Shown here: one piece after another, positions 10,095 to 39,575 of the stretch
Layout of the letters: each line of letters starts with the position of its first letter
How positions within the stretch are numbered: position 1 is the first letter of the stretch
NCBI GenBank assembly: GCA_038213805.1
Contig: JBBQSO010000006.1
Span: forward strand, 32,001 to 96,000
Source of the DNA: Planctomycetota bacterium
GTDB taxonomy: Bacteria; Planctomycetota; UBA11346
Length of the DNA stretch: 64,000 bases
Direction of reading: 5' to 3'
Program-made: the position numbers and the translations under genes
Notes under the pieces: model-generated
Seen by the model: the letters and a program-made list of their open reading frames with translations, nothing else
The model's database searches: none
Told to the model about the DNA's origin: nothing

Positions 10095-13000
10095 ATGCGC
10101 CTCAACGCCTCTCCCGCCGTGACCGCGACCGCCTGGACCATCGGGGCCGCCCTCCGGCGAGCGCAGGACACCCTGAGGTCGGGAGCGCGCTGGGCGCTAG
10201 GGTTGCTGCTGTGCGTCGCGACGACCTTCGCCGCCGCGGCCACCGCGCCTACCGTCGTCATCACCTGCCCGGCAGTCACCGCCGCCTCGACCAACCTCTC
10301 AGTCGTCACCTTCACCGCCACCTTCAGCCAGGCGGTCTCGGGCTTCGACGTCAGCGGCATCACCACCGTCAACGCCGCGGCCGGCGCCTTCACCGTGGTC
10401 AACGCCACCGTCTACACCTTCTCGATGACCCCGGCGGCCGAGGGCGTGTTCAGCGCCAAGGTCAACGCCGGCGCCTGCACCGCCACCGCGGCGGGCGCCA
10501 CCCCCAACCTCGCCTCGGTGGTGTTCGCCAAGACCTACGATGTCACCGCGCCGACCACCACCATCACCTCGACCGCGCCGTCGCTGACCAACACCACCAT
10601 CCCCATCAAGATCACCTTCAATGAGGCGGTCGCCGGGTTCACGCTCACCGACATCACCGTCAGCGGCGGCACGGTCGCCAGCTTCGCCGGCAGCGGCGCG
10701 ACCTACACCGCGATCGTCACCGCCAGCGGCGACGGCAGCGTGACCGTCGATGTGGCGGGCGGCGCCTGCACCGACATCGCCGGCAACGCCAACGTCGTCG
10801 CGACCCAGCTGGTGCGCACCTTCGACCACACCGCGCCGACCGCCACCATCACCACCACCGCAGCGAGCCCGGTCAACGCCGCGTATCCGGTGACCGTGAC
10901 GTTCAGTGAGGCGGTGACCGCTTTCATCGCCACGAACATGACCGTGACCGGCGGGACGATCGCGAGCTTCGCCGGCAGCGGCTCGACCTACACCTTCACC
11001 GTCAACCCGACGCTGCAGGGCAACGTCACCGTCGCCCTGACGGCGAGCAAGACCAAGGATCTGGCCGGCAACTTCAACAGCGCCGCCACCAGCCTGGTCG
11101 TGGTCTTCGACTCGGTGCGCCCGACCGCCGCGTTCACCTCGACGGTGTCGACCGCCACCACCAACCTCGCCACCATCCCGATGACCCTGACCTTCTCGGA
11201 GGTGGTCACCGGCTTTGACATCTCGCAGATCGCGGTCACCAACGGCGCCACCAGCAACGCCGCGGGCAGCGGTCGCACCTACACCTTCGACCTGGCGCCG
11301 ACCGCCGAGGGCGCGGTGACGGTGAACTACGCCATCGGCCAGGTCGCCGATGCGGCCAACAACACCAATACCGCCTCCGCCGCGTTCACCAGGACCTACG
11401 ACACCACTGCGCCGACGATCTCGATCACCAGCACCGCGCCGACCCTGACCAACGCGGTCATCCCGATCAAGATCACCTTCAGCGAGGCGGTCACCGGCTT
11501 CACCCTTGGCGACATCACCGTCGGCAACGGCACGGCCTCGGCGCTGCTCGGCAGCGGCGCGAGCTATACCGCCAACGTCACCGCCACCACCGACGGGCAG
11601 GTCACCGTCGACGTGGCCGACGCGGTGTGCACCGACATCGCCGGTAACGCCGATATCGCCGCCTCGCAGTTCAGCGTGGCCTTCGACAAGACCTCGCCGA
11701 TCGCCACCATCGCCACCACCACGCCGACCCCGTCGAACGTGCCCTTCGCGGTGACCGTGTCCTTCGACGAGGCGGTCACCGGCTTCGTCGCCAGCGACAT
11801 GAGCGTGACCAACGGCGCGATCTCGGGCTTCGCGGGCAGCGGCGCCAGCTACAGCATGGTCATCACCCCCGCCACGCAGGGCAACGTCACCATCACGATG
11901 ACTGCGGCCAAGTGCCTCGACCTGGCGGGCAACAGCAACCTCGCCGCCACCGCGCTGGCCGTGGTCTTTGATACCGTGAAACCGACCGTGGTCTTCACCT
12001 CCACGATCAGCGCCGCCAGCACCAACCTGTCGACCATCCCGGTGACCGCCACCTTCTCGGAGGTGGTGACCGGCTTCAGCGACAGCCAGCTCACCCTGGT
12101 CAACGGCTCAACCGCCAATCTCGCCGGCAGCGGCCGCACCTACACCTTCGACCTCAACCCCGGCGTCGAGGGCACGGTCACCGTCGCGCTGCCTGCGGGC
12201 CAGGCGACCGATGCGGCCGGCAACACCAACAGTCTGTCCACCACCTTCAGCAAGGCCTACGACCTGACCGCGCCGACCGTGACGGTGACCGGCACCGGTC
12301 CGGCCGTGACCAACACCACCATCCCCATCCGCATCGTCTTCAACGAGGCGGTGAGCGGCTTCACCGTCGGCGACCTGACCGTGGTCGGCGGCACCGCCGG
12401 CTCGTTCGCGGGTTCGGGCGCCACCTACACCGCGGTCATCACTGCGACCAGCGACGGCACCGTCACCGTGGATATCGACGCCGCGGTGTGCACCGACATC
12501 GCCGGCAACGCCCTGGCCGCGGGCACCGCGCAGTTCAGCGCGGTGTTCGACCATACCGCGCCGACCGCGACCATCGCCTCGACTTCGACCAGCCCGACCA
12601 GCGCCGCGTTCCCCGTGACCATCGTCTTCAGCGAGCCGGTGACGGCCTTCGTCGTCGCCAACGTCACCGTCACCAACGGCACCATCTCGGGCTTCTCGGG
12701 CAGCGGCGCCAACTACGCCTTCACCGTCACTCCGCCGGCCCAGGGCACCGCGGTGGTGGCTCTGACCGCGGGCAAGGTCAAGGACCTGGCCGGCAACTTC
12801 AACCTCGCGGCCGGCAGCCTGAGCATGGCCTTCGACAGCGTGCATCCGACCGTCGTGCTGAGCTCGACCCTGACCGTGGGCAGCACCAACCTCTCGACCA
12901 TCCCGGTCACGGCGACCTTCTCGGAGACCGTCACCGGCGTCGACTTCACCACGTTGACCCTGGTCAACGGTGTGGTCGCCAACTTCACCGGCGGCGGCCG

Positions 13001-16000
13001 CACCTACACCTTCGATCTGAACCCGAGCGCCGAGGGCACGGTCAGCGTCACCGTCCCCGCCAACAACGCGACCGACGGCGCCGGCAATGGCAACACCGCG
13101 AGCGCGACCTTCACCCGCGCCTACGACCTGACTGGGCCTACCCCGACCATCACCTCGACCGCTGCCAACCTGGTCAGCACCACCATTCCGGTCGTGGTGA
13201 CCTGGGATGAGGCCGTTACCGGCTTCACCCTCGCCGACGTCACCGTCGGCAACGGCACCGCGGGCTCCTTCGCCGGTTCGGGCGCCTCGTACAGCTTCCT
13301 GATCACCGCCACCGCCGACGGCACCGTCACCGTCGACATCGCCGGTTCGACCTGCACCGATATCGCGACCAACATCAACAACGCCGCCACCCAGTTCAGC
13401 CGCGTGGTCTTCGACCACACCGCGCCGACGGCGGTCATCACCACCACTGCGTCCAGCCGGACCAACGCCGCGATCCCGGTGACCATCACCTTCAGCGAGC
13501 CGGTGACGGCATTCGTCGCCACCAACGTCACGGTCACCAACGGCGTGATCTCCGGTTTCGCGGGCAGCGGCGCGACCTACAGCTTCACCGTCACCCCGCC
13601 CGCCCAGGGCACCGCGACCATCGCCCTGGCCGCGAACAAGGTGAAGGACATCGCCGGCAACTTCAACCTCGCCGCGACCAGCCTGCCGGTGGTCTTCGAT
13701 ACCGTGCACCCGACCGTCGCGCTGACCGCAGCGCTGGCGTCGAGCAGCTTCAACACCGGCAGCTTCCACGTCACCGCGACCTTCAGCGAGGCGGTGACCG
13801 GCTTCGATGAAACCGATGTCACCGTGGTCAACGGCGCGGTCGCGAACCTCACCGGCAGCGGCGCGAGCTACAGCTTCGACGTCACCACCGCCGTCACCGG
13901 CGCGGTCGCGGTGTCGATCGCCGCCAACGTCTGCACCGACCTGGCGACCAACAACAACCTGGCCTCGACCACCCTGACCAAGACCTATGACCTCAACGGT
14001 CCAGGCATGATCATCACCTCGACCGCGCCGGCGATCACCAAGGTGGCGATCCCGGTGACCATCACCTTCGACCAGCCGGTTACCGGCTTCGCGGTCGGTG
14101 ACCTGACGGTTGGCAACGGCACGGCCGGCAGCTTCACCGGCAGCGGCGCGACCTACAGCGCGGTGCTGACCGCCAGTGGCGACGGCACCGTCACCCTTGA
14201 TATCGCCGCGGGGGTCTGCCAGGACCTCGCCGCCAACGACAACACCAGCGGCATCCAGTTCGTCCGCACTTTCGACTCGACTGCCCCGACCGCGGTCTTC
14301 GCCACCACCGCGGCCAACCCGAGCAATGTCGCCATCCCCGTCACGGTGACCTTCAGCGAGACCGTGACCGGCTTCACGGCCAGCGCCCTGACCCTGACCA
14401 ACGGCACTGTGTCGGCCTTCGCGGGCTCGGGAGCGACCTACAGCTTCACGCTCTCCGCGGTCGCCCAGGGCACCGTGACGGTGGCCTTCGCGGCCAACAA
14501 ATACCATGACGTGCCCGGCAACTTCAATACGGCCACCACCACCATGAGCGTGGTCTTCGACACCGTGCGGCCGAGCGTCACCCTGACCTCCTCCGTGGCC
14601 TCGGCGACCTTCAACACCGGCACCTTCCCGGTGGTGGTGACCTTCAGCGAGGCGGTGACCGGCTTCGACGCGAGCTCGCTCACGATCGGCAACGGCGCCG
14701 TCGCCAACTTCGCCGGCAGCGGCGCGAGCTACAGCTTCGACGTCACCACCGCCACCCCCGGTGCGGTCACGGTGGCGGTCGCGGCCAGCGTCTGCACCGA
14801 CCTGGCGATCAACGACAACTTCGCATCGACAGTGCTGACGAAGACCTACGACACCACCGGCCAGACCCCGGTGATCGCCTCGACGGCGCCGGCGCTGACC
14901 AACGCGGCGATCCCGATCACCGTGACCTTCGGCCAGGCCGTCACCGGCTTCACCTCGGGTGATCTGACCGTCGGCAACGGCACGGTCACGGCCTTCAGCG
15001 GTTCAGGCGCGACCTACGCCGCGACCATCACCGCGACCACCGACGGCACCGTGACCGTCGACATCGCCGCGGGCGTCGCCCAGGATCTCGCCGGCAACGA
15101 CACCAGCACCGGTGCGCAGTTCTCGCGCAGCTTCGACCACACCCTGCCGACCGCGGCCATCGCCTTCGGCGGCGCCAACCCGACCAACGTCGCGATCCCG
15201 GTGACGGTGACCTTCAGTGAGCCGGTGAGCGGCTTCCTGGCTACCGCGCTGACCTTGACCAACGGCTCGGTCTCGGCCTTCGCCGGCTCGGGCGCGACGT
15301 ACACCTTCACCATGACTGCGACCACGCAGGGCACCGTGACGGTGGCCTTCGCGGCCAGCAAGTACCGCGACCTGGCGAACAATCTCAACACCGCGACCAC
15401 CACCCAGAGCGCGGTGTTCGACACCGTGCGGCCGACCGTGGTGCTGAGCACCAGCCTGGCCTCGGCCAGCTTCAACAGCGGCACCTTCCATGTCATCGCG
15501 ACCTTCAGTGAGGCGGTGACCGGCTTCGACGTCAGCGATGTGACCGTGACCAATGGTGCGGCCGCGGGCTTCACCGGCACCGGCGCGAGCTACGCCTTCG
15601 ACGTGACCACGGCTACCCTGGGCGCGGTTTCGGTGTCGATCGCGGCCAACGTCTGCACCGACCTGGCGATCAACAACAACGTCGCCTCGAGCGCGCTGGT
15701 CAAGACCTACGACACCAACGGGCCTGCAGTGGTCGTCACCTCGAACGCCCCGGCGCTGACCAACACCACCATTCCCATCACCGTGACCTTCGACCAGGCC
15801 GTCACCGGCTTCATCGCGGGCGACCTGACGGTGGGCAACGGCACGGTCTCGGCCTTCAGCGGCTCGGGCGCGACCTATGCGGTGACCATCACGGCGACCA
15901 CTGACGGCACCGTGACCGTCGACATCGCGGGCGGCGTCGCCCAGGACCTGGCCGGCAACAACAACACCACCGGCGCGCAGTTCTCGCGCACCTTCGACCA

Positions 16001-19000
16001 CACCCTGCCGACCGCGGCCATCGCCTTCACCGGCGCCAACCCGAGCAACGTCGTCCTGCCCGTGACGGTGACGTTCAGCGAGCCGGTGAGCGGCTTCCTG
16101 GTCAGCGCGCTGACCCTGACCAACGGCACCGCCTCGGCGGCGACCGGCAGCGGCGCGACCTACAGCTTCACCGTGACCGCGACCACGCAGGGCACCGTGA
16201 CGGTGGCCTTTGCGACGACCAAGTACCGTGACCTGGCAGGCAACTTCAATACCGCGACGACCACCCAGAGCGCGGTGTTCGACACCGTGCGGCCGACCGT
16301 GGCGCTGAGCACCAGCCTGACCTCGGGCAGCTTCAACAGCGGCAGCTTCCACGTCATCGCGACCTTCAGCGAAGCGGTGACCGGCTTCGACGTCAGCGAT
16401 GTGACCGTGACCAATGGCGCGGCCGCCGGCTTCACCGGCACCGGCGCCAGCTACGCCTTCGACGTGACCACGGCCACCGTGGGCGCGGTCTCGGTGTCGA
16501 TCGCGGCCAACGTCTGCACCGACCTGGCGATCAACAACAACGTCGCGTCGAGCGCGCTGGTCAAGACCTACGACACCTCGGCCCCGGGCCTGCTCATCAC
16601 CTCGGCCGCTCCGGCCATCACCAACAGCACCATTCCGCTCACCGTGACCTTCGACCAGGCGGTGACCGGCTTCATCGCGGGCGACCTGACCGTCGGCAAC
16701 GGCACGGTCACGGCCTTCAGCGGCTCGGGCGCGACCTATGCGGTGACCATCACCGCGACCACCGACGGTACTGTGACCGTCGATATCGCGGGCGGCGTCG
16801 CCCAGGACCTGGCCGGCAACAACAACACCACCGGCGCGCAGTTTGCGCGCACCTTCGACCACACCGCTCCGACCGCGGCGATCGCCCTGGGCGGCGCCAA
16901 CCCGACCAACACCACCATCCCCGTGACGGTGACCTTCAGCGAGCCGGTGAGCGGCTTCCTGGTCAGCGCGCTGACCCTGACCAACGGTACCGCCTCGGCG
17001 GCCACCGGCAGCGGCGCGACCTACAGCTTCACCGTGACCGCGACCACGCAGGGCACCGTGACGGTGGCCTTCGCGACGACGAAGTACCGCGACCTGGCGG
17101 GCAACTTCAACACTGCGACCACCACCCAGAGCGCGGTGTTCGACACCGTCCGCCCAACGGTTGCGCTGACCAGCACCACGACCTCGCCGCTGTTCAACAC
17201 CGGGACCTTCCGCGTCATCGCGACCTTCAGTGAGGCGGTGACCGGCTTCGACGTCAGCGATGTCACGGTCTCGAACGGTGCGGCCTCGGGCTTCACCGGT
17301 ACGGGCGCGAGCTACGCCTTCGACGTCACCACTGCCACCATCGGGCAGGTCTCGGTGTCGATCGCGGCCAACGTCTGCACCGACCTGGCGATCAACAACA
17401 ACGTCGCCTCGAGTGCCATGGTCAAGACCTATGACACCAACGGGCCGGGCGTGACCATCACCTCGACCGCCCCGGCGATCACCAATGCCGCCATCCCGGT
17501 GACCATCACCTTCGACCAGCAGGTCACCGGCTTCAGCCCGACCGACCTGACGATCGGCAACGGCAGCGTCGCGGCCTTCAGCGGCTCGGGCGCGACCTAT
17601 GCGGTGACCATCACCGCGACCAGCGACGGCACTGTGACCGTCGACATCGCGGGTGGCGTCTGTCAGGACCTGGCCGGCAACAACAACACCACCGGCGCGC
17701 AGTTCTCGCGCACCTTCGACCATGTCGCGCCGACGTCCGCCATCACCCTGGGCGGCAGCAACCCGACCAACACCACCATCCCGGTGACGATCACGTTCAG
17801 CGAGACCGTGAGCGGCTTTGCCGCCAGCGCGCTGACCATCACCAACGGTACCGCCTCGGCGGTCAGCGGCAGCGGCGCGACCTACGCCCTCACCGTGACC
17901 GCGACCACGCAGGGCACCGTGACGGTGGCCTTCGCGGCTAGCAAATACCGCGACCTCGCCGGCAACTTCAACACCGCGACCACCACCCAGAGTGCGCTCT
18001 TCGACAGCGTGCGGCCGACCGTGGTGCTGAGCACCAGCCTGGCTTCGAGCAGCTTCAACACCGGCAGCTTCCATGTCATCGCGATCTTCAGCGAGGCGGT
18101 GACCGGCTTCGACGTCAGCGATGTGACCGTGACCAACGGCGCGGCCGCCGGCTTCACCGGCACCGGCGCGAGCTACGCCTTCGACGTCACCACGGCGACC
18201 CCGGGCGTGGTCACGGCGTCGATCGCGACCAGCGCCTGCGCTGACGCCGCGACCAACGCGAACCTCGCGTCGAACACCCTGTCCAAGGTCTTCAACACCA
18301 CCGGACCGGTTCCGGCGATCGCCACGAGCGCTCCCGGCCTGACCAACACCACCATCCCGATCACCGTGACCTTCACCGCGCCGGTGACCGGCTTCACCCA
18401 GGGCGACCTGACCATCGGCAACGGCACGGTCTCGGCCTTCAGCGGCTCGGGCGCGACCTATGCGGCGACCATCACCGCGACCACCGACGGCACCGTGACC
18501 GTCGACATCGCCGCGGGTGTCGCCCAGGACCTGGCCGGCAACGACAACAGCACCGGCGTGCAGCTGGCGCGCACCTTCGACCACACCGCGCCGACCGCGG
18601 CCCTGGCCCTGGGCGGAGCCAACCCGACCAACACCACCATCCCGGTGACGGTCACCTTCAGCGAGGCGGTGAGCGGCTTCGCGGCCAGCGCGCTGACCAT
18701 CACCAACGGCACCGCCTCGGCGGTCAGCGGTAGCGGTGCGACCTACGCCTTCACCGTCACTGCGACCACGCAGGGCACCGTGACGGTGGCCTTCGCGGCG
18801 AACAAATACCGCGACTTCGCGAACAACTTCAACACTGCGACCAGCACCCAGAGCGCGGTGTTCGACACCGTCCGTCCGACCGTGGTGCTGACCACCAGCC
18901 TGGTCTCGGGCAGCTTCAACACTGGCACCTTCCATGTCATCGCGACCTTCAGCGAGGCGGTGACCGGCTTCGACGTCAGCGATGTGACGGTGACCAACGG

Positions 19001-22000
19001 CGCGGCCGCCGGCTTCACCGGCACCGGTGCGAGCTACGCCTTCGACGTCACCACCGCCGTCCAGGGTGCGGTGGGGGTCTCGATCTTGGCCAATGCCTGC
19101 ACCGACCTGGCGATCAACAACAACGTCGCCTCGAACGCGCTGAGCAAGACCTACGACACCACCGGGCCGGTCCCGACCATCGCTTCGACCGCCCCCGCCA
19201 TCACCAACGCCACCATCCCGATCACGGTGACCTTCGACCAGCCGGTGACCGGCTTCGTCTCGGGCGACCTGACCATCGGCAACGGCACGGTCTCGGCCTT
19301 CAGCGGCTCGGGCGCGACCTATGCGGCGACCATCACCGCGACCAGCGATGGCACCGTGACCGTCGACATCGCGGGCGGCGTCGCCCAGGACCTGGCCGGC
19401 AACAACAACACCACCGGCGTGCAGCTGGCGCGCACCTTCGACCACACCGCCCCGACCGCGGCCATCGCCTTCGCCGGCAGCAACCCGACCAACCTGGCGC
19501 TGCCCGTGACGGTGACCTTCAGCGAGCCGGTCAGCGGCTTCCTGGCCACCGCCCTGACGGTCAGCAATGGCGCGGTCTCGGCCTTCACCGGCAGCGGCGC
19601 GACCTACACCTTCACGGTCACGCCGTCCGCGCAGGGCACCGTCACGGTCGCCTTCGCGGCCGGCAAGTACCGCGACCTCGCGACCAACCTCAACACCGCG
19701 ACCACCACGCTGAGCACGATCTTCGACACCGTGCGTCCGACCGTGGTGCTGAGCACCACCCTGGCCTCGAGCACCTTCAACACCGGCAGCTTCCACGTCA
19801 TCGCGACCTTCAGCGAGGCGGTCACCAGCTTCGACGTCAGCGACGTCACGGTGACCGGCGGCGCGGCCTCGGCCTTCACGGGCACCGGTGCGAGCTACGC
19901 CTTCGACGTGACCACCGCCACCCCGGGCGCCGTCGGCGTCGCGATCGCCACCAGCGTGTGCACCGACCTCGCGACCAACAGCAACGTGGCCTCGAGCACG
20001 TTGACCAGGACCTATGACACCAGCGGCCCCGGTCTGGTCATCACCTCGGCCGCTCCGGCTGCGACCAATGCGCCCATCCCGATCACGGTGACCTTCGACC
20101 AGCCGGTGACCGGCTTCGTCCAGGGCGACCTGACCGTCGGCAACGGCACGGTCACCGCCTTCAGCGGCTCGGGTGCGACCTACGCGGTGACCATCACCGC
20201 GACCACCGACGGCACCGTCACGGTCGACATCGCGGGCGGTGTCGCGCAGGATCTCGCCGGCAACGACAACACCACCGGCGCGCAGTTCTCGCGCACCTTC
20301 GACCACACCATCCCGACGGCGGCCATCGCTCTGGGCGGGCCCAACCCGACCAACAGCGCCATCCCGGTCACGGTGACCTTCAGCGAGCCGGTGAGCGGCT
20401 TCACCGCCGGCGCCCTGACCATTACCAACGGCGTGGTCTCGGCCTTCACGGGCAGCGGCGCGACTTACACCTTCACCGTCACGCCGCCCGCGCAGGGCAC
20501 CGTGACGCTGGCCTTCGCGGCTGGCAAATACCGCGACATCGCCGGCAACTTCAACACCGCCACCACCACCCAGAGCGCGGTGTTCGACACCGTCCGCCCG
20601 ACCGTGGTGCTGACCACCAGCCAGGCCTCGGCCACCTTCAACACCGGCACCTTCCATGTGATCGCGACCTTCAGCGAGGCGGTGACCGGCTTCGACGTCA
20701 ACGATGTGACGGTGACGAACGGTGCGGCCACGGCCTTCACCGGCACCGGCGCGAGCTACGCCTTCGACGTCACCACCGCCGTCCAGGGCACCGTCGGCGT
20801 GGCCATCGCGACCAGCGTCTGCACCGACCTGGCGTCCAACAACAACCTCGCTGCGACGACCCTGAGCCGCACCTACGACATCACCGGCCCGACCGTGACC
20901 ATCGCCTCGGCCGCTCCGGCCCTGACCAACACCACCATCCCGATCACCCTGACCTTCAGCGAGGTGGTGACCGGCTTCACGACCGGCGACCTGACCGTCG
21001 GCAACGGCACGGTCACGGCCTTCAGCGGCTCGGGCGCAACCTACGCGGCGACCATCACCGCGACCACCGACGGCTCGGTGACGGTCGACATCGCGGGCGG
21101 CGTCTGCACCGATCTCGCCGGCAACGGCAGCACCACCGGCACGCAGTTCAGCCGCACCTTCGACCACACCCTGCCGACCGCGGCCATCGCCTTCGCCGGA
21201 GCCAGCCCGACCAATGCGCCGCTCGCGGTGACGGTGACCTTCAGCGAGCCGGTGACCGGCTTCCTGGCCTCTGCCTTGACGGTCAGCAACGGCGCGGTCT
21301 CGGCCTTCACCGGCTCGGGCGCGACCTACACCTTCACGGTCACGCCGCCCGCGCAGGGCTCGGTCTCGGTCGCCCTCGCGGCCGCCAAGTACCATGACCT
21401 GGCCAACAACAACAACACCGCGACGACCACCCTGAGCGCGGTGTTCGACACCGTGCGCCCGACCGTGGTGCTGAGCACCGGCCTGACCTCGGCCACCTTC
21501 AACACCGGCACCTTCCATGTGATCGCGACCTTCAGCGAGGCGGTCACCAGCTTCGACGTCAGCGATGTGACGGTGACGAACGGCGCGGCCTCGGGCTTCA
21601 CCGGCACCGGCGCGAGCTACGCCTTCGACGTCACCACGGCGACCGAAGGTGCCGTCGGCGTGGCCATCGCGGCCACCGTGTGCACCGACATCGCGACCAA
21701 CAACAACGTCGCCTCGAACACGCTGACCAAGACCTATGACGTCAGCGGCCCGGCCGTGACCATCACCTCGGCCGCCGCGGCCATGGTCAATGCGCCCTTC
21801 ACCATCACCGTGACCTTCGACCAGGCGGTGACCGGCTTCGCCCTGGGCGACCTGACCGTGGGCAACGGTACGGCCTCGGCCCTGACCGGCTCGGGTGCGA
21901 CCTACGCCCTGAGCATCAGCCCGACCGCTGATGGTACGGTGACCGTCGACATCGCGGCGGGCGTCGCCCAGGACCTGGCCGGCAACGACAACACCACCGG

Positions 22001-28786: not shown

Positions 28787-28804
28787 GCGCCTCGCGCCTC
28801 GCGC

Positions 28805-28807: not shown

Positions 28808-30892
<2,085 letters not shown>

Positions 30893-31005
30893 GTTCCACC
30901 AGCGCGGGTTGCGGTCCGGGAAAGAAGCGGTCATACTCAGGGATTGGCGCTGCCCCCTGGGAGGCCAGGAAGCTTACCCGATTTTTCCGCACGCAGGTGG
31001 AGCGC

Positions 31006-34000
31006 ATGGCCAGCGAACCGCATCAGGATGACAGGGCGCCGCCAGCGCCGCCGGGCGCGGCTGCACCGTCTGCACCAACCGCGGCGGCCGGCCAGTCCGG
31101 CCGGCCGTCAACACGCTTCCAGCCGGTCCAGCCGCTGCTCATCCCCGGCTTCGGTGAGGAGGGGCAGCAACCGCAGGGGCGTAGCCCGACCCTGCACCCG
31201 TTCACCACCTCGCGCGACCTCAGCCGCGAGCCGACCACCCTGCTGCGCCCCGCGCCCGAGCTCGAGCCCGAGCCGGAGGCGGCGGGACGCGAAGTGACGC
31301 TGCTCGGTGGCGAGGCCGTGCTCGACGGTCGCGAAGCGACCCTCGGCGCCGGCGCGCTGCATGGTCGCGAGGCGACCCTGCTCGGCGCGGTCGGCGGCCG
31401 CGAAGCCACCCCGCTGCGTCCGGCCGGCTCCTTCGCGCTGACCGGTCGCGAACCCACCCTGCGTGGCGCAGCGACGCCGCGCCCGGCGGGCGGCGGCACC
31501 TCGGCGGGCACCGTCGCCGGTGGCGCCGCGGGCGTCACCGGCCGCGAGCCCACCCTGGCCGCGGGCGGCGGCTCGCGCCGTCCCATCACCCAGCCCACCG
31601 ACCTCGGCGGCCGGGCCGGCGCGCCGGCCGCGCCCTCCGGCCGCCCACGCACCGGCAGTGGCACCAGCGTGTCGTTCGACGACGCCTGGCACCTGCAGGG
31701 CCGGCGCGGCCCGCACACTGGCGCCAAATGGGGCGACTTCGAACTCGGCGGCATCCTCGGCGAGGGCGGCATGGGCGCGGTCTACCGCGCCAAGCAGGTC
31801 AGCCTCAAGCGCCGCGTCGCGCTCAAGGTGCTGCCGCCCAACCTCGCCGCCGACGACAAGCTGCTGCAGCGCTTCCACCTCGAGGCGCGCACCTCGTCGA
31901 TCCTCTCGTCGCCGCACGTCGTGCAGGTCTACGCCATCGGCGAGCACGACGGCAACCACTACTTCGCCATGGAATTCGTCGAGGGCACCGACCTCTACGA
32001 CATCATCAAGCAGCGCCAGACGGACCACCAGCCCTTCACCCCGGACGAGGCCGCGGATCTGGTCGTGCAGGCCGCCAAGGGCCTCGCCGAGGCCGGCCGC
32101 CACGGCATCGTGCACCGCGACATCAAGCCGCCCAACCTGATGGTGGCCAAGGGCAACCTGCTCAAGATCGCCGACTTCGGCATCGTCAAGATCATGGGCG
32201 AGCACCAGCTGACCATGACCGGCCAGGCGGTCGGCACGCCCGCCTACTGCAGCCCCGAGCAGGGCCGCGGCGAGGCGCAGATCGACACGCGCAGCGACCT
32301 CTACAGCCTGGGCGTGGTCTTCTATGAGCTGCTCTGCGGGCGCAAGCCGTTCGAGGGCACCACGCCCAACGCGTTGATCTACCAACATTGCTATGGCGAG
32401 CCCGAACTGCCGCAGAAGCTCAATCCGCTGATCGGCGACGAGTACCAGGCGGTGGTGCTGCGCTGCCTGCAGAAGAAGCCCGAGCACCGTTACGCCTGCG
32501 CCGACGATCTGGTCAAGGACCTCGAGTCGATCCGTGCCGGTTCGATGCTGAAATCGGCGATCGCGCACTACCGCCTCGGCACTGGCGCCGACGAGGCCAA
32601 GCGCGAGCAGATGAACTGGTGGCAGCGCCATCTCGCCGCGGTCGCCGGCGCGGCCGGGCTGGTGGTGGTGCTCGGTGGCGGTGGCGTGTGGGCGTGGGCC
32701 GACCACGCGCAGCGTGTCCGCCTGGCCGCGTCCGAAGAGCAGAGCCGACGCGACATCGCCGCGAGCGAAGAGCGCCAGAAACACGAGCTCTCCGCGGCGC
32801 GCCTGCGCGCCACGCTGGCATCCCTCGACCAGATCGCGCCGCTGCCCGCCGACGTCGAGGCGCGCCTCGACGAGCTTGCCGCCGCGGCCGGCAGCGGCGA
32901 CGCCGATGTCGCACGCTGGCGCGCCAAGGTCACGCGCGTGCGCCTGCTTGCCGGCGGCCTGGTCGCGCTCGACACCGCCGAGCCCGATGCCGCCGCGCGC
33001 ATCAGCGCCGGCGCTGACCTCACCGCCTACGCCGCGCTGGTCGGCACCGGCGACGCAGCCGCCGAGCGCTGGGCGGCGCGTCTGGCGCAGGCACAGAAGG
33101 ACGAGGACGAGTTGCGCGCCAAGCTTGGCGTGCTCGACACCGCCGCCCTCACCCAGGCCGCCGCCGACAGCCTGCGCCCGCTACTCGCCCAGCTCCAGCG
33201 CCTGGTGCCAGCCGATGACGCGCGCGTGCGCGCCTGGGGCGAGCGCCTCGCCGGCTTCGACGCGCGCATCACCGCCCTGATCGCCAGGATCGCGCCGCTC
33301 GACGCCGGCGGGCGCATCACCGAAGGTCAGCGCGGCGCCTGCCTGGAAGCGCTCGGCCAGTTGCGCCCGCTGCTCGGCGCGGCCGACGCGCGCGTGCAGC
33401 GCTGGGAGCGCCGCCTGCAGGAGGCCGAAGGCCTGGTCGGCCGCCTGCGTGCCGCGATCGGCGCGGTGCTCGGCACCGTCGACCGTCCGTCGGTGCCGGC
33501 ACAGGACACCATCGAGATCGACCTCGCGCAGCTGCGCACCCTGCTCGACAGTGACGATCCAGACCTCAAGCGCTGGGACCTGCAGATCCGCAGCGCCAAC
33601 GCCGCGATCGCCAAGCTGCGCGAGCGTCTGGCGGCGCTCGACGCCCTGCCCAAGGGCGAGACCGCGCCCTTCGCGCTGCTCGCGCCGCTGCACCAGGCGG
33701 TCGACGAGCTGCGCGGACTCGCGCGCCCCGGCGACGCCGACGTGCTGCGCTGGGAAGCGGCCTTGCGAGTCGGCGACGAGCTCATCGCCACGCTGCGCAC
33801 GCGCCTGCGCCGCCTCGACGGTGCCCAGGCCGAACCCATCGCCCTCGCCCAGCAGCAGGCCCTGGCCCACGATCTCGAGCGCCTCGACGCCAAGGGTGGC
33901 GTCGATGGCGAGCAGGCGGCGGCGTGGAGCAGCCGCCTCGCCGCCGAGGCCGCGCGGGTCGCGGCGCTGCGTACCGCCTTGGCCGTGCTCGACCGCCCGG

Positions 34001-35469
34001 CGAGCATCGTCGAGGCCACGCGCAGCGCACTCGCGCGGCTCGCCGCGGATGCGGGCGAGGGCGATGCCGACGTGGTGCGCTGGCAGGCCAAGGTCGCGCG
34101 CGTCGCCGCCCTGTGCGGGAAACTCAAGGTCCTCGATGCCGCGACCATGCCCGATGATGGCGAGCACCTGCACGCCCAGCTGGTCGTCGAGGTCGGCGCC
34201 GCGGACGCCGAGGCGCAGCGCTGGGGCGCGCGCCTGGGCGAGATCGCCGCGGCGCGCGCCGCGGTCGCACCGCTGGCCCGGATCCAGCCGCTCACGCCCA
34301 CCGCCGTCGCCGACCTGGTGCGGCTGCGCGCCCTGGTCGGCGCCGCCGACGCCGGCTGGCAGCGCCTCGACGCCAAAGTCGCGCGCGTCGGCGAACTCGC
34401 CGCGCTGCTGCGCCCGCTTGCAACCACCTACGCGCAGGCTCCGGCCGCAGCCACCGCCACCCACGCCGCCCTCGCCGAGCTGGTGGGCCTGGTCGGCGTC
34501 GGCGACCCCGGCTGCCGCGCCTGGGCGCAGCGTCAGGCGCTGCTCGACGGTCCTGGCCGACCGGCCTGGGCCAGCGCCGCCGGCCAGGACGAATACGGCC
34601 CGTGGGCGCTGGTGCGCGTCGGTGACGCCGAGGTGCGCTTCCGCTATGTCCCCCCCGGCGCCTTCCGCATGGGCAGCCCCGACGACGAGACCGGCCGCGA
34701 GGGCGACGAGGTCGCCGTGCCGGTGACTCTCACCCAGGCCTTGTGGCTGGCCGAAAGCGAGTGCCCCCAGCGCCTGTGGCACGTCGTGACCGGCGGCGCG
34801 CCCAGCCGCTTCACCGGTGACGATCGCCCGGTCGACAGCGTCTCGCTCGACGACATCCAGGCGTTCCTTGCCGCGCTGACGCGGCGCGTGCCGGGTCTGC
34901 CCGCGCGCCTGCCCAGCGAGGCGGAGTGGGAATACGCCTGCCGCGCCGGCGCGATCGGGCCGTGGGCCGCGGGCCCGGGCGGCGCGCAGCGCAGCCTGGA
35001 CGGCCTCGCCTGGTACGCCGCGAACAGCCACGGCGAGAGCCACGAGGTCAAGCTGCGTTATCCCAACGCGCTCGGCCTCTACGACCTCCAGGGCAACGTC
35101 AGCGAGTGGTGCCGCGACCGCTACGCGCCGTATCCGACCAGCGCGGCGAGCGACCCGCTCGGTCGCGACGGCGCGCAGGGCGTGGCCCGCGGCGGTTCGT
35201 GGGGCGACGGCCAGGCGACGCTGCGCGCGGCCAACCGCTTGCCGGCGCGCCCCAGCCTGCGTTCCGCCTACCTCGGGTTCCGCCTCGCCGCCGCGGTGCA
35301 GTGGCCGGTCCCGCCCGACGGCCTGGCCCTGCTCGGCGCCGGCGCGGCGACGCGCGGCCAGATCGAGTTCCAACTCGGCACCGCGCACGTGCGCGTCGAG
35401 GTCGCGCTGCCGGCCGACGGCCTGCCCAGCGCGACGTCAGCACCCCGCCCCGCCCAGGCGACGCCATGA
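31006..35469 (+). CDS. Membrane Ser/Thr kinase with extracytoplasmic helical repeats and C-terminal FGE/SUMF1 domain
   Basis: GEGGMGAVY, HRDIKPPN, DFG, GTPAYCSPEQ; one TM helix; RLPSEAEWEYACRAG, NALGLYDLQGNVSEW, RGGSW, GFRL. Confidence 0.93.
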   Translation: MASEPHQDDRAPPAPPGAAAPSAPTAAAGQSGRPSTRFQPVQPLLIPGFGEEGQQPQGRSPTLHPFTTSRDLSREPTTLLRPAPELEPEPEAAGREVTLLGGEAVLDGREATLGAGALHGREATLLGAVGGREATPLRPAGSFALTGREPTLRGAATPRPAGGGTSAGTVAGGAAGVTGREPTLAAGGGSRRPITQPTDLGGRAGAPAAPSGRPRTGSGTSVSFDDAWHLQGRRGPHTGAKWGDFELGGILGEGGMGAVYRAKQVSLKRRVALKVLPPNLAADDKLLQRFHLEARTSSILSSPHVVQVYAIGEHDGNHYFAMEFVEGTDLYDIIKQRQTDHQPFTPDEAADLVVQAAKGLAEAGRHGIVHRDIKPPNLMVAKGNLLKIADFGIVKIMGEHQLTMTGQAVGTPAYCSPEQGRGEAQIDTRSDLYSLGVVFYELLCGRKPFEGTTPNALIYQHCYGEPELPQKLNPLIGDEYQAVVLRCLQKKPEHRYACADDLVKDLESIRAGSMLKSAIAHYRLGTGADEAKREQMNWWQRHLAAVAGAAGLVVVLGGGGVWAWADHAQRVRLAASEEQSRRDIAASEERQKHELSAARLRATLASLDQIAPLPADVEARLDELAAAAGSGDADVARWRAKVTRVRLLAGGLVALDTAEPDAAARISAGADLTAYAALVGTGDAAAERWAARLAQAQKDEDELRAKLGVLDTAALTQAAADSLRPLLAQLQRLVPADDARVRAWGERLAGFDARITALIARIAPLDAGGRITEGQRGACLEALGQLRPLLGAADARVQRWERRLQEAEGLVGRLRAAIGAVLGTVDRPSVPAQDTIEIDLAQLRTLLDSDDPDLKRWDLQIRSANAAIAKLRERLAALDALPKGETAPFALLAPLHQAVDELRGLARPGDADVLRWEAALRVGDELIATLRTRLRRLDGAQAEPIALAQQQALAHDLERLDAKGGVDGEQAAAWSSRLAAEAARVAALRTALAVLDRPASIVEATRSALARLAADAGEGDADVVRWQAKVARVAALCGKLKVLDAATMPDDGEHLHAQLVVEVGAADAEAQRWGARLGEIAAARAAVAPLARIQPLTPTAVADLVRLRALVGAADAGWQRLDAKVARVGELAALLRPLATTYAQAPAAATATHAALAELVGLVGVGDPGCRAWAQRQALLDGPGRPAWASAAGQDEYGPWALVRVGDAEVRFRYVPPGAFRMGSPDDETGREGDEVAVPVTLTQALWLAESECPQRLWHVVTGGAPSRFTGDDRPVDSVSLDDIQAFLAALTRRVPGLPARLPSEAEWEYACRAGAIGPWAAGPGGAQRSLDGLAWYAANSHGESHEVKLRYPNALGLYDLQGNVSEWCRDRYAPYPTSAASDPLGRDGAQGVARGGSWGDGQATLRAANRLPARPSLRSAYLGFRLAAAVQWPVPPDGLALLGAGAATRGQIEFQLGTAHVRVEVALPADGLPSATSAPRPAQATP

Positions 35470-38400
35470 AGACCTATGCCAGACTGGTGCGCTGGACTGC
35501 GCTCGCCGCCGTGCTGCTGCTGCTGCTCGTCCAGGGCGGACTCGGCGCGGCCGAAAGCGTCGGCATCGATCCCTTGCCGAGCCAGGTGCGCAGTCGCAGC
35601 GACGTGCCGGTTTCCGGCACCTTCAGCACCGCTGGGGCCGCCACCACCCTGCGCTTCTTCGTCGACGGCGCACTCGACGGCACCACCGCGGCGACGGGCT
35701 CGTGGAGCTACGTCCTTGGCGCGACCAGCAGCGGCCTGACCGGGCCCTACGCCGACGGCCAGCACACCCTGCTGGTGCAAAGCGAGGACGGCGGCGGGGC
35801 GCTGTTCGCGGTCGCCGCGGCCACCTTCACCGTCGACCTCAGTCCGGATCTCTTCCTTGGCGGCCTGGGCGTGCGCGACACCGGACCGGCGACCTTCGCC
35901 GCCGGCGAGAACGTGCTGGCGAGCGGCGCGGCGATCAGCAGCTACCCGTCCACAGCGGTGCCGGCGACCAAGGTCAAGACGCTCGCCATCACCCTCGACG
36001 ACCGCCCCGACGGCAGCGCCGAGACGCTTAAACTCAAGACCGGTTTCGTGCTGGCGAGCGCGCTGACGGCGACCTTCGACAATCTCAGCGGTACCCTCAC
36101 CATCACCATCTCGGGCGCGACCCCGGTCGCGCCCAGCGTCCTCGCCGACGTCGCGCGCAACGTCGTCTATCTCACCACCCAGACCTCGCCGACCGCGGGC
36201 CTGCGTCGCGTGCGCTGGACGTTGACCGACAAGAACAACGCGGTGTCGCCGGTCGCCACCGCGACCATCGCCGTCACCAACGGCAGCGGCGGGCCGCCGG
36301 TGGTGTCGCTGGGTGGCGATTTCGCCAGCGCCAACGTCACCGCGACCCTGCTCGAGGGCGGCGGCGCGCTCGCCATCGCGCCGGGCGCGCGCATCCTCGC
36401 CAACCCCACCGCGCCGTGGCCGACGCCGGTCTTCGATACGGTGACCAGCCGCTACACGCCCTCGTTCATCTACACCATGACCGCCAACGACAGCCTCTCG
36501 CAGTACAGCGGCGCGGTCCTGGATACCATCACCATCACGCTGACCAATCCGGGCGGCGGCGGCCTGCTGCCCGCCGGCACGGAATCGCTGAGCACCACCC
36601 CGACCAGCGAATTCACCTACGGCAGCACCTTCGTGACCCGTCCGGCCAACGCAGCGCCAGGCCACTTCCTGTACTTCGACGGCAACGAGGCGCCGCTCGA
36701 CACGCCGGTCGCCGGCGATGGCGGCGCCTATATGATGTACACGGTGGGCGGCAGCTACAGCCAGGGCGCCAGCAGCGGCAGCCTGGTGGTCCGCGCCAAC
36801 CAGAACACGGCCCAGCTGGTGTGCCCGATCCGCAGCGCTTCCGGAACCACTTTCGCACCCGACGTGCGCCCCATCCCCACCGCCTTCGCCGAGACCCTGC
36901 TGCGCACCATCGCCTACACCAACACCAGCACCAACCCGACGCGGCTGGGCAACCAGCGCGTGGTCACGGTGACGGTCAGCAACGCGTGCACCGCCGCGAC
37001 GATCCGCAGCTCCGTGACGCGCACCTGCACCATCACCCTGGTGCCGAGTAATGAGGCGCCGGTGATCGCCGGGCCAAGCTCCTTCTCCGGCAACGAAGAC
37101 GCCCCGCTCGCCCTCAATGGCCTGCAGATCTCGGACAATGATGGCAACGGCGGCAACGAAACCCTCACCCTGGAGGTCGCGCACGGCACGCTCAGCCTGG
37201 GCGACCTCACCGGCCTGGCCGTGGTCGGCAACGGCACCGCCAAGGTCACCCTCACCGGCGCACTCGACGACCACGCCAGCGGCGTCCTGGCGCTCGCCCT
37301 CGCCCGCGCGCTGCGTCCCGGCAACCTCACGTTCGCTCCGACCGCGCAGTTCAGCGGCACCGACCAGCTGCGCGTGATCCTCACCGACAACGGCCACTCC
37401 AGCGACGCCACCGCCACGCCACAGACCACCACCTTCCTGCCCAACTCCGGTGGCGGTCCGATCACCCTCATCATCGCCGCGGTCAACGATCCGCCCGATG
37501 CGGCGCTGCCCGGACCCCAGGTCACCCAGGAGGACCAGGACCGCATCATCGGCGGCCTCGCGGTGAGCGACCCTGACCAGCCGACCGGGCAGGTGCAGGT
37601 CGCCCTCGCCGCCGTGCACGGCGTGCTGACCTTGAATGACATCACCGGACTCGACTTCGCCTTCAGCGATGCCGACGGCAGCGGCAGCGGCAGCGGCACG
37701 GCCGACCGCACGATGGTCTTCCGCGGCACGCTCAGCGATATCAACACCGCGCTGATCGCGGTGAACTACCATCCCGACCTGCACTTCTACGGCAGCGAAA
37801 CCCTGACCATCGCGGTCAATGACCTTGGCAACACCGGCCTGCGCAGCGGCGCCGCCGGCGGCACCATCGCGTTCGGCGGCAGCGCCAATTCCTGGGTGCG
37901 CACCCGCACCGTGGCGATGTCGGTGCGCTTCACCGATCAGCGACCGGAGGTCGTGGTGAGCCCGGCCAGCTGCCTGGTGAGCGGCACCATCACCCTCGTC
38001 GGCGGCACTTATCTCGCGCCCACCTATCCGCTCCTCGGCCAGCCGCTCAACCCAGACGCCACACCGGCCACCCCACCCGGGGCCGGCACCAGCGCAAACG
38101 CTGGATCGCCGGGCTCCAATCTGGTCGCGAGCGACACCGAGACCAGGGACGCGCGCGGCCTGACCTACACCGTGGCGCTGGCCACTACCCAGGGCGACCT
38201 GCTGCGCCGCCGGCCGGGCGACCCTGTGGATGGCGTGCTGCTGGCCGCCGGCACGGTGTTCACCCAGGATGACCTCGACAACGGCTTCATCACCTATGTG
38301 CACAATGGTGCGCTGAGCGGCGACGACGGCTTCGTCTTCACCGTCGCCGACGACAACAACGTCAGCCATCCGGCCGGCGCCAGCGATGTCCAGCGCCAGC

Positions 38401-39575
38401 AGTCGCCGCCCACCGTCTTCCCGATCGCCATCGACCGCAGCCTGCCGGTGGTGGTGCTCGCCGGCGGTGGCGCGACCTTCATCGAGTCCATCGCCGGCAC
38501 ACCCGGCAGCGGACCGGTCGCGCTCGACAACGATCCCGCGACCGCGGTGGTCAACGCCACCTCACCCGGGGTGTTCGTCCCACCCAGCGGCGCCGGCAGC
38601 GTGACGGTCAGCCTGGCCATCCCGACGCCGGTGGCGACCGCGCTCACCCCGTCGGGCGATGTCCAGGACGTGATCGCGCTCAAGGACCAGGCGCCGATCA
38701 CGGTCAGCGGTCAGACCGTGCTGTTCAACGGCAGCCAGGCGATCGGCTCGCTCAGCGGTGGTGGCGGCGGCGCGCCGCTGGTGATCAGTCTGAGCTCTTC
38801 CGCGCCAATCCCGGTCAGCGCGGTCAGCGCGCTGATCCGCAACCTGACCTTCACCAACCCCTCGGCCAACCCCTCGGCCGCGACCCGGGTCGCGACCATC
38901 ACCGTGCAGAACGGCAGCGGCCTGAACAGTCTGCCGGTCACCACTGCGATCACCGTGGTACCCGTCAACAATCCGCCGGTGATCGCCACGCCCGTGCTCG
39001 TCGCGACCGTACCTGGCCTGACCGTTACCGGCCAGGTGGTCGTGAACGACCCTGACAGCCTGCTCAGCTTCGACGTCACCGGCGCGCCGCCCACCAAGGG
39101 CCAGGTGAGCGTGGCCGGCAACGGCACCTTCACCTACGCCGCGGCGGCGGTGGTCGCCGGCGCCGGCGGCCTGCTCAGCGATCATTTCGACATCACCGTC
39201 ACCGACGATTTCGGTGAGACCGCGACCACGACCTTCACCGTGCGCATCAGCGATCTCGGCGCGACCGCGCCGGTGGTGACCTCGAATCCACCGATGGAGG
39301 CGACCAAGGACGGCGCGCTGGTCTACCAGCCTGCGGTCTCGACCGCCGGACTCGTCGCGCCCGTGCTGCGCTACGTGCTGGTCGGCCCGACCCCGGTGCC
39401 GACCCAGGCACCCAGCTTCAGCACCAGCGACGGTACGCTCAACTGGACGGCGGTGCCGCAGCCGATTGGCGGCTACTACGACCTCGGCATCCTGGTCATC
39501 GACCAGGTCAGCGGCAGCGCCACCTACCAGCCGATCCTGCTCAAGGTCGTGACGCCGCCGGCGGGGGGGGGCTGA
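35466..39575 (+). CDS. Large secreted adhesin-like protein with Ig, cadherin-like and CSPG-type repeats
   Basis: ATGA overlap with the kinase; signal peptide; NEAP/VNDPP/VNNPP linkers, NED/QED, DxD motifs; FTQDDLDNGFITYVHNG...DDGFVFTVAD. Confidence 0.8.
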   Translation: MKTYARLVRWTALAAVLLLLLVQGGLGAAESVGIDPLPSQVRSRSDVPVSGTFSTAGAATTLRFFVDGALDGTTAATGSWSYVLGATSSGLTGPYADGQHTLLVQSEDGGGALFAVAAATFTVDLSPDLFLGGLGVRDTGPATFAAGENVLASGAAISSYPSTAVPATKVKTLAITLDDRPDGSAETLKLKTGFVLASALTATFDNLSGTLTITISGATPVAPSVLADVARNVVYLTTQTSPTAGLRRVRWTLTDKNNAVSPVATATIAVTNGSGGPPVVSLGGDFASANVTATLLEGGGALAIAPGARILANPTAPWPTPVFDTVTSRYTPSFIYTMTANDSLSQYSGAVLDTITITLTNPGGGGLLPAGTESLSTTPTSEFTYGSTFVTRPANAAPGHFLYFDGNEAPLDTPVAGDGGAYMMYTVGGSYSQGASSGSLVVRANQNTAQLVCPIRSASGTTFAPDVRPIPTAFAETLLRTIAYTNTSTNPTRLGNQRVVTVTVSNACTAATIRSSVTRTCTITLVPSNEAPVIAGPSSFSGNEDAPLALNGLQISDNDGNGGNETLTLEVAHGTLSLGDLTGLAVVGNGTAKVTLTGALDDHASGVLALALARALRPGNLTFAPTAQFSGTDQLRVILTDNGHSSDATATPQTTTFLPNSGGGPITLIIAAVNDPPDAALPGPQVTQEDQDRIIGGLAVSDPDQPTGQVQVALAAVHGVLTLNDITGLDFAFSDADGSGSGSGTADRTMVFRGTLSDINTALIAVNYHPDLHFYGSETLTIAVNDLGNTGLRSGAAGGTIAFGGSANSWVRTRTVAMSVRFTDQRPEVVVSPASCLVSGTITLVGGTYLAPTYPLLGQPLNPDATPATPPGAGTSANAGSPGSNLVASDTETRDARGLTYTVALATTQGDLLRRRPGDPVDGVLLAAGTVFTQDDLDNGFITYVHNGALSGDDGFVFTVADDNNVSHPAGASDVQRQQSPPTVFPIAIDRSLPVVVLAGGGATFIESIAGTPGSGPVALDNDPATAVVNATSPGVFVPPSGAGSVTVSLAIPTPVATALTPSGDVQDVIALKDQAPITVSGQTVLFNGSQAIGSLSGGGGGAPLVISLSSSAPIPVSAVSALIRNLTFTNPSANPSAATRVATITVQNGSGLNSLPVTTAITVVPVNNPPVIATPVLVATVPGLTVTGQVVVNDPDSLLSFDVTGAPPTKGQVSVAGNGTFTYAAAAVVAGAGGLLSDHFDITVTDDFGETATTTFTVRISDLGATAPVVTSNPPMEATKDGALVYQPAVSTAGLVAPVLRYVLVGPTPVPTQAPSFSTSDGTLNWTAVPQPIGGYYDLGILVIDQVSGSATYQPILLKVVTPPAGGG

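Follow-up and report, generated by a model that had tools for sequence, protein, structure and literature searches.

What does the multi-pass membrane protein with a C-terminal TPR array that is encoded up to position 28225 of this DNA do, and does the giant protein of Ig-like domains encoded two genes away serve as its substrate? The window analyzed here (the whole stretch of 64,000 nucleotides, ~70% G+C) corresponds to G000:C6:32001-96000 of a genome assembly of 5.5 Mb in 180 contigs (G000, 90% complete), and its closest protein matches are labelled Planctomycetota. A reading of the sequence alone (the sequence-only reading) had proposed that a bacterial TMTC-type system, possibly with a second transferase of the Wzy_C type, glycosylates this giant protein and a cadherin-like protein further downstream. 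Judging from a structure model, the gene ending at 28225 very probably encodes a periplasm-facing, lipid-sugar-dependent glycosyltransferase of the TMTC type with a GT-C fold. That the giant protein is its substrate is a tentative proposal; its basis is a neighbourhood specific to one clade, seen twice with a different gene order and with enzymes 40% identical, and it is weakened by controls. The enzyme family itself is already known, and the link to a giant protein is limited to a small bacterial lineage.

The structure of the TMTC-like protein was modelled with AlphaFold from a 61-sequence alignment (pLDDT 89.7, pTM 0.87). The model contains 11 transmembrane (TM) helices followed by 14 TPR helices, which amount to ~7 TPR motifs; the number of TM helices and their sidedness were read from the helix list. 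Using VIA-align, the model was compared with 48,161 chains, and its membrane part (residues ~2-431) matched the GT-C enzymes AglB (3waj, Z 19.9, 316 residues aligned), Pmt1-Pmt2 (6p2r_B, Z 19.7, 346 aligned), Pmt4 (9e61_A, Z 18.6, 335 aligned), STT3B (6s7t_A, Z 18.5, 344 aligned), PglB (5ogl, Z 18.0, 311 aligned), ArnT (5f15_A, Z 17.1, 332 aligned, with 14% identity the highest among the GT-C matches) and ALG12 (9s6t, Z 16.8, 300 aligned). The TPR part matched the TPR of OGT (1w3b_A, Z 24.7) and PilF (2fi7, Z 21.1). Foldseek against the PDB gave TPR matches only, which filled the list. At the sequence level, Pfam reported only TPR families (residues ~416-640), leaving the 469-aa membrane part with no match even at E≤10; a profile of 50 membrane domains gave no matches to PDB sequences at E≤10, and a single-sequence phmmer search gave TPR proteins only.

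The conserved residues lie in or next to the loops (EL) of the model. EL1 carries D38/D39, within the FMFDD that directly follows TM1, and R66; H137-P138...E142-V144 and Q149-R150 are found at EL2 and K195 at EL3; EL4 consists of a low-confidence loop (247-265), an amphipathic helix (270-289) and D297-Y298; and EL5 carries E359-H-R361-M-Y363. The three motifs picked out earlier (FMFDD, HPxxxEAV and ExRxYxP) are present as FMFDD, HPLNSEAV and VEHRMYVP, and the GT-C fold and TMTC architecture proposed with them agree with the structure comparison. D38/D39, H137/P138 and E359/R361/Y363 are conserved across 50-61 homologues, with D38 invariant and D39 in at least 90% (n = 50). In the 50 membrane domains the DD, H/N/H, HP..E.V, QR, K195, D297-Y298 and E.R.Y positions are either invariant or conserved in at least 90%.

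Seven motifs, M1-M7, have been described for TMTCs: DD; SHKSYRP; RxD; KE(T/Q)xxT; DW; PxxP; and ERxxY (Eisenhaber et al. 2021, PMC7801869, cited here and below from excerpts). The comparison was made by eye against Table 4 of that paper, without residue-level alignment to a TMTC sequence. M1 is present in the window protein as D38/D39. For M2, R66 is present, and the next position is P67 in at least 90% of the family and Arg in the window. M3 corresponds to Q149-R150-x-E152 of the family, of which R150 is present, and the acidic residue is His152 in the window clade. For M4, K195 is invariant; the residue after it is Glu in the consensus of 61 homologues (TKEVMV), variable among the 50 membrane domains, and Ala196 in the window. 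The counterparts of M5, M6 and M7 are D297-Y298, P346...P352 (with different spacing) and E359-x-R361-x-Y363 (in which the Arg is one position off).

Animal TMTC1-4 (CAZy GT105; Pfam TMTC_DUF1736) are protein O-mannosyltransferases of the endoplasmic reticulum that act on cadherins and protocadherins. They consist of an 11-TM GT-C module and then a TPR array on the non-cytoplasmic side (PMC7801869). The window protein shares the 11-TM GT-C module with its C-terminal TPR array. As compared by eye, motifs common to its family and the TMTCs are the DD and R-P of EL1, the HP..TE.V and R.E at EL2, the Lys at EL3, the D-(Y/W) that follows an amphipathic helix in EL4, and the E..R.Y of EL5; its candidate acceptor would likewise be a tandem beta-sandwich adhesion protein. 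It differs in having no TMTC_DUF1736 match, a shifted Arg in M7, DY for DW in M5 and another spacing in M6, and its clade lacks the Glu of M4 and has His in place of the acidic residue of M3. The sugar donor would be a bacterial polyprenyl-phosphate sugar, and the candidate acceptor is built of Big_12 rather than cadherin EC domains. Because the TPR array comes after TM11, we infer that it is periplasmic. With this TPR arm and the family resemblance, the enzyme likely glycosylates protein.

The PMT family (GT39; yeast Pmt1-Pmt2 and Pmt4, actinobacterial Pmt) carries out O-mannosylation of Ser/Thr from a polyprenyl-phosphate-mannose donor. It shares with the window protein the GT-C fold (Z values above) and an acidic pair in the first loop. 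The window protein differs from it in having a TPR array and no MIR beta-trefoil; identity is ~10%, and PF02366 was not among the reported matches. Essentially full-length TMTC homologues (transferase plus TPR) occur in many poorly characterised prokaryotes, for example AMJ42_05695 of a Deltaproteobacterium, with a BLAST E of 3e-47 to human TMTC3 (PMC7801869); a prokaryotic TMTC-like family is therefore already in print. The window protein resembles these in joining a sugar-transferase module and TPRs in one bacterial protein, and differs in belonging to a divergent, order-specific clade of four genomes in which both readable neighbourhoods contain Big_12. In the literature searched (mostly listings and abstracts) no tested substrate of a prokaryotic TMTC homologue was found, in agreement with the earlier statement that none is established for the bacterial proteins.

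A word-indexed search returned 182 homologues of the TMTC-like protein, three of them close (94, 85 and 82% identity) and the rest at ≤41%. The distant ones come from Planctomycetota, Verrucomicrobiota, Acidobacteriota and others. Among the 120 homologues listed, 13 carry the JGI label "protein O-mannosyl-transferase" and 11 carry PMT_2. The family comprises at least 626 stretches in species-representative genomes, and 102 TMTC-like membrane domains were counted in the 81 loci L001-L081. Scanning metagenome contigs with the protein gave no close relative (best 38%, mostly TPR-only matches). Homologues were found in 1/10 other genomes of the same genus, 2/24 of the same family, 4/48 of the order (G000, G010, G022 and G049) and 61/401 of the Planctomycetota genomes sampled. 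The four members from the order form one clade (SH-aLRT 99) with long internal branches when 51 membrane domains are placed in a maximum-likelihood tree by a quick search. Within G000 the gene is single-copy. Tandem runs of four or five TMTC-like paralogues were seen in other PVC genomes (L005; L030; L194 = G340:C2:1850000-1869999; L199 = G110:C1:821000-840999).

Selection on the gene was estimated against the G010 orthologue. The ratio of nonsynonymous to synonymous substitution rates (dN/dS) is 0.13 for the membrane part and likewise 0.13 for the TPR part (dS ~0.21-0.25), which indicates purifying selection on both domains and hence on the body of the gene.

The giant ORF (open reading frame; 9996-23486, + strand, 4,496 aa) contains 46 Ig-like domains of Pfam Big_12, a number also returned by a custom Big_12 hidden Markov model (HMM). 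It is composed of 19.6% Thr and 8.7% Ser (28% Ser/Thr; GC3, the third-position G+C, is 0.95), much as the sequence-only reading had described it: very rich in Thr/Ser, with about 46 Ig domains. The likely start, ATG 10092, is followed by a signal-peptide-like hydrophobic segment (read by eye), and tandem Big_12 domains and a predicted export signal are both present in the protein. Big_12 domains occur in just two genes of G000. When its first 700 aa were compared with 10 genomes of the same genus, no close orthologue was found (best 37%); note that these genomes are 62-89% complete and that repeats assemble badly. Coordinates and strands confirm that the giant gene is directly followed by a divergent pair, the Wzy_C gene and the TMTC-like gene. 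The Wzy_C gene is convergent with the giant gene, their 3' ends overlapping by 25 bp.

A Big_12 array adjoins the TMTC-like gene in both genomes of the order with readable context (2/2; G000 and G022), the contigs of G010 (2,495 bp) and G049 (7,390 bp, ending inside the gene) being too short. In G000 the giant gene lies 2.7 kb from the TMTC-like gene, and the order is reversed relative to G022. There, a 745-aa homologue, 40% identical to the window protein, is followed on the same strand by a Big_12 protein of at least 9 domains that runs off the contig; its start, ATG 6446 (placed by the signal peptide), is 127 bp after the enzyme's stop. The association between TMTC-like genes and Big_12 arrays thus holds in both readable members of this clade of the order and is absent from the 79 distant loci described below.

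The arrangement in the window is not an assembly artefact, because contigs of two sequencing runs (possibly the window's source) show at most one difference over 22216-28002, and contigs from two other studies bridge both junctions. No RNA run was listed among the sequencing runs that contain the stretch. Those contigs are ~90-95% identical and span the giant/Wzy_C junction (X3, record 19) and, at ~90% identity over 25763-26792, the Wzy_C/TMTC-like junction (X4, record 29). They come from close kin and therefore add little to the functional argument.

Three columns of the Big_12 alignment (9, 53 and 90) carry Ser/Thr in 65-96% of the window's 46 domains and in 89-100% of the 9 domains of G022 (L081:6446-9235), versus only 11-42% of 57 Big_12 domains from genomes without a TMTC-like match. 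These could be acceptor sites or could merely reflect closer kinship. As evidence of linkage they were rejected, since the two linked arrays may simply be closer kin.

In the reading we prefer, the eleven TM helices would place the DD and other conserved loops, together with the ~7 TPRs, in the periplasm. The enzyme would take a single sugar from a polyprenyl-phosphate-sugar donor and transfer it to Ser/Thr hydroxyls of exported proteins. Elsewhere in G000 a GtrA-family gene and three PMT_2 genes are present, which makes lipid-linked sugar chemistry plausible in this organism. The TPR arm would select folded beta-sandwich domains, and in this lineage the enzyme would act preferentially on the Big_12 Ig-array protein encoded next to it. 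Taken whole, with the giant as substrate, this reading is tentative and falls short of probable. The order-specific clade might even be a dedicated O-glycosyltransferase for Big_12 adhesins, its TPR arm recognising the folded beta-sandwich in the way proposed for animal TMTCs with cadherin EC domains, but this we consider more doubtful.

A number of observations weigh against this reading. Some concern the enzyme. PF08409 (TMTC_DUF1736) does not match the TMTC-like protein at E≤10; it is matched weakly by 2/50 family members (best E 0.051), PMT_2 being matched by 11/50 (best E 3.2e-8), and a connection to a eukaryotic PF08409 cluster in the ESM Atlas (score 0.94, rank 10) should be considered a lead only. 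The proposed kinship with TMTC/DUF1736 accordingly stands for fold and architecture and fails for the Pfam HMM. R67, H152 and A196 of the window clade depart from the family, in which P67 and E152 are each found in at least 90%. An AGG at 26087-26089 aligns, in a DNA alignment, to the ATG start of the 95%-identical G010 orthologue. Note also that the modelled fold does not discriminate between protein and lipid or glycan as the acceptor; ArnT scores nearly as high as the protein-modifying enzymes.

Others concern the link to the giant protein. At 79 distant TMTC-like loci, phmmer found no homologue (0/79) of the giant (Big_12), Wzy_C or cadherin-like protein. The 32 largest neighbours at these loci are diverse: they include C25 and S8 proteases, FG-GAP, beta-helix and one I-set Ig protein, as well as SecA, ribonucleotide reductase, an acetyl-CoA-carboxylase-like protein, AcrB and others. 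As a control for large ORFs, 20 Planctomycetota TMTC-like loci were compared with 20 others, each taken at a distance of 100 kb along the same contigs. Non-TMTC frames of at least 1000 aa occurred in 14 TMTC-like versus 15 control loci, which is no enrichment; frames of at least 1500 aa occurred in 2 TMTC-like versus 0 control loci, and Ser/Thr-rich large frames were seen on both sides. What was counted are stop-to-stop frames in high-GC DNA, some of them spurious in the TMTC-like and the control loci alike. These results do not support a general link between TMTC-like genes and giant Ig or cadherin proteins.

Nor did Thr/Ser richness survive as evidence of glycosylation, being a trait of Big_12 domains in general: those in genomes without a TMTC-like match are equally rich (T 12-22%, S 7-16%, versus T ~20%, S ~9% in the linked ones). 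Big_12 proteins were found in 17/24 genomes of the family and TMTC-like genes in only 2 of those 24, and most Big_12 arrays therefore exist without the enzyme. In G000 the enzyme and the giant are not co-transcribed, because a gene on the opposite strand lies between them. Finally, both linked cases belong to one clade and therefore possibly represent a single inherited arrangement.

The matter is of some consequence because the prokaryotic TMTC family is large, and no way of arriving at a first enzyme-substrate pair is cheaper than a gene neighbourhood that recurs. The case in this lineage is simple, with one copy of the enzyme and one candidate acceptor of 46 near-identical domains. If true, the preferred reading would supply that first pair for the prokaryotic family. 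The O-mannosylation of particular domains in adhesion molecules would have a bacterial counterpart, which might be its forerunner, and GT-C enzymes with TPRs would have been O-glycosylating specific domains of adhesion proteins before there were animals. If not, the controls (no phylum-wide enrichment, Thr/Ser richness independent of the enzyme) are a caution for other readings of the kind "enzyme beside giant adhesin".

Many of the same observations fit a rather doubtful alternative, in which the enzyme does O-glycosylate proteins in the periplasm, but different ones or a broad range of them, and its position reflects a variable accessory region rich in surface-protein genes. The fold and the TPR arm fit it equally. 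It would account for the absence of phylum-wide enrichment in large ORFs and of Big_12 near the 79 distant loci, for the patchy occurrence of the enzyme set against the commonness of Big_12 in the family, and for the opposite-strand gene that separates enzyme and giant in G000. Synteny with a genome of the same genus (G007) is restricted to enolase, which also suits a variable region. Two observations speak against this alternative. G000 has a single TMTC-like gene and just two Big_12 genes, and the former lies two genes from one of the latter, for which the chance is ~1 in 1,000 genomes of this size (a rough estimate); and the neighbourhood recurs in G022 around a protein that is 40% identical and in a different gene order.

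ArnT, the lipid A aminoarabinose transferase (GT83), and arabinosyl and mannosyl GT-C enzymes modify non-protein acceptors. A second alternative, which we regard as unlikely, is accordingly that the TMTC-like enzyme acts on lipid A or lipopolysaccharide (LPS) core, peptidoglycan or exopolysaccharide, perhaps together with the WaaL-fold protein in assembly of an envelope glycan. ArnT aligns over 332 residues at the highest identity of any GT-C match and is the best HHpred template for TMTCs (PMC7801869). It differs from the window protein in its 13 TM helices, a small periplasmic alpha/beta domain, the absence of TPR and its lipid acceptor. Membrane neighbours of distant family members also lend themselves to this view: the 38 multi-TM neighbours at the 79 loci comprise PMT_2/TPR paralogues, GT87, Polysacc_synt and MurJ flippases, BacA, an exosortase and transporters. 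None of the 38 is Wzy_C.

The Wzy_C protein is the other element that would fit glycan assembly. It matches Pfam Wzy_C at 43-43.7 bits (cut-off 31.7), and its model (pLDDT 88.3, pTM 0.90) has ~14-15 helices through the membrane part and aligns with WaaL (7tpj_B) at Z 19.3 over 348 of 403 residues (14-475), the next matches being RodA/FtsW at Z 10-12. Its earlier label as an O-antigen-ligase-like Wzy_C gene is thus supported by both Pfam and fold. Like WaaL and PglL/PilO it has Arg and His in a large loop; R289, R345, G362, H392, G403 and R620 are invariant in the family alignment. It differs from WaaL in an extra TM helix, a C-terminal all-alpha domain of ~280 aa (residues ~500-787, 23462-24300) with no PDB match above Z 8.4, and the small size of its family (in a set of 1.84 billion proteins, the long form has 44 representatives at E≤0.001). 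A ligase and an O-oligosaccharyltransferase role are not told apart by the sequence or the fold of this protein; no PglL structure was among the 50 matches listed in the structure comparison, which excludes neither role. It is tied to the adhesin by position alone. The divergent pair is kept in the ~90% identical relative (record 29).

Conservation over longer distances speaks otherwise. A search for Wzy_C homologues in the TMTC-bearing genomes G010 and G022 found none (G049 was outside the search), and the Wzy_C family HMM had no matches at about 180 other loci. Homologues at ≤31% identity are present in G001, G004, G005 and G024, all without a TMTC-like match. A non-protein acceptor is further disfavoured by the TPR arm, a protein-binding module under the same purifying selection as the catalytic part, and by the action of TMTC, the closest architecture, on proteins (excerpts of PMC7801869 and PMC11292533). 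Families for LPS, O-antigen or glycan synthesis gave zero Pfam matches among the 34 window ORFs scanned, which upholds the earlier remark that no such synthesis genes are visible in the window. Wzy_C is one of nine such genes in G000, and the neighbourhoods of its paralogues (7 loci) contain neither Big_12 nor a TMTC-like gene. In the genus, several paralogues of the long form occur per genome, with a tandem pair in G004:C249.

Very unlikely is a third alternative, that the window copy of the TMTC-like gene is non-functional or weakly expressed, its start lost (ATG to AGG) and conserved residues changed. The sequence-only reading placed the gene at 26000-28225; the end stands, but no start codon occurs near 26000. 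After a stop at 25955-25957 the frame opens at 25958, and the first canonical start, GTG 26204 or ATG 26207, is inside TM1, with no in-frame ATG, GTG or TTG before it. The AGG is not a slip of one assembly, because the contigs of the two runs (possibly the window's source) are identical or one letter off. Yet about 710 codons are intact, and dN/dS is 0.13 against G010. The changes at residues 67, 152 and 196 are common to the 82-94% identical relatives, and are therefore traits of the clade rather than decay. Over the 20-codon N-terminal tail between the orthologue's ATG and TM1, dN/dS is 1.59 and the tail is therefore free to vary; relatives start at differing upstream codons, and a near-cognate start (CTG, ATC or ATA) is possible. 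The window copy thus has either a near-cognate start or is silenced.

The cadherin-like protein has matches to Cadherin_3 (1.1e-11), Big_9 (1.9e-10) and Cadherin_4 (1.9e-10) in Pfam, a signal peptide, 12.5% Thr and 8.3% Ser. It begins 7.2 kb downstream of the TMTC-like stop, and the cadherin/CSPG-type protein that had been noticed 7 kb downstream is therefore real. It does not appear to be part of a glycosylation system, however: the kinase/FGE-sulfatase gene runs 4 bp into its start, and an FGE-sulfatase ORF begins 2 nt after its own stop. Because it is start/stop-coupled to the FGE genes and lies behind a kinase gene on the opposite strand, it belongs to another unit. With their coupled stops and starts, the kinase-FGE, cadherin-like/Big_9 and FGE-sulfatase genes form an apparent three-gene unit at 30997-40417.

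The Wzy_C and cadherin-like proteins are probably outside the system. The least likely alternative is the two-enzyme system of the sequence-only reading, in which the TMTC-like enzyme would start an O-glycan on the adhesin and Wzy_C, in the role of a PglL-type O-oligosaccharyltransferase, would modify the same beta-sandwich proteins, the cadherin-like one among them. What suits it is that the two genes are adjacent with divergent promoters, also in close relatives, that Wzy_C has the WaaL/PglL-superfamily fold with its conserved Arg and His, and that its C-terminal helical domain could, speculatively, bind protein. Against it are the tiny family of Wzy_C, its being one of nine Wzy_C genes in G000, the paralogue loci noted above, the failure to find a homologue in G010, G022, the ~180 loci or the 38 multi-TM neighbours, and the placement of the cadherin-like gene in an FGE-domain operon.

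Gene placement in the window was based on ORFs, GC3 and Pfam. The features are listed below.

Features of the window, with positions counted from its first nucleotide
Feature	Position	Strand	Basis or remark
Enolase	8059-9597	-	Pfam/ORF
Giant Big_12 protein	10092-23486	+	ORF open from GTG 9996; likely start ATG 10092
Wzy_C (WaaL-fold) membrane protein, 787 aa	23462-25825	-	Start ATG 25825
Divergent intergenic region	25826-26086	.	From Wzy_C start to the position aligning with the start codon of the G010 orthologue
TMTC-like GT-C gene (membrane+TPR)	26087-28225	+	Translation; alignments with P0002-P0004; DNA alignment with G010
Predicted GT-C membrane module, model residues 1-419	26147-27403	+	Structure model, VIA-align, conserved columns
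C-terminal TPR array, model residues 420-657	27404-28117	+	Pfam TPR_1/2/8/11 and others; structure model; PDB sequence matches
Ser/Thr protein kinase with FHA domain	28805-30934	-	Pkinase 2.8e-42, FHA 6.4e-9; GC3 0.93; context only
Ser/Thr kinase fused to FGE-sulfatase domain	30997-35469	+	Pkinase 5e-46, FGE-sulfatase 3.8e-30; context
Cadherin-like/Big_9 secreted protein, 1,369 aa	35466-39575	+	Start ATG 35466; Cadherin_3, Big_9, Cadherin_4
FGE-sulfatase-domain ORF, 279 aa	39578-40417	+	Pfam
Beta-helix/Big_7 secreted protein	41225-42985	-	Pfam
ECF sigma/FecR pair	43066-45551	+	Pfam; sigma and FecR genes overlap 4 bp

To the right of 45551 the window contains housekeeping genes. Long ORFs of high GC3 within 2963-6968 and 53875-56424 (434, 197, 675 and 849 aa) belong to no Pfam or NCBIfam family. 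The beta-helix/Big_7 gene adjoins the pair encoding an ECF sigma factor and a FecR-type anti-sigma factor. The TMTC-like gene of G049 comes immediately after a transketolase gene of the same orientation (L165, G049:C269, 3396-5705). A transketolase fragment is also found at the left edge of the window (3-926), 25 kb from the TMTC-like gene, and the presence of transketolase in both places may be a remnant of shared regional ancestry.

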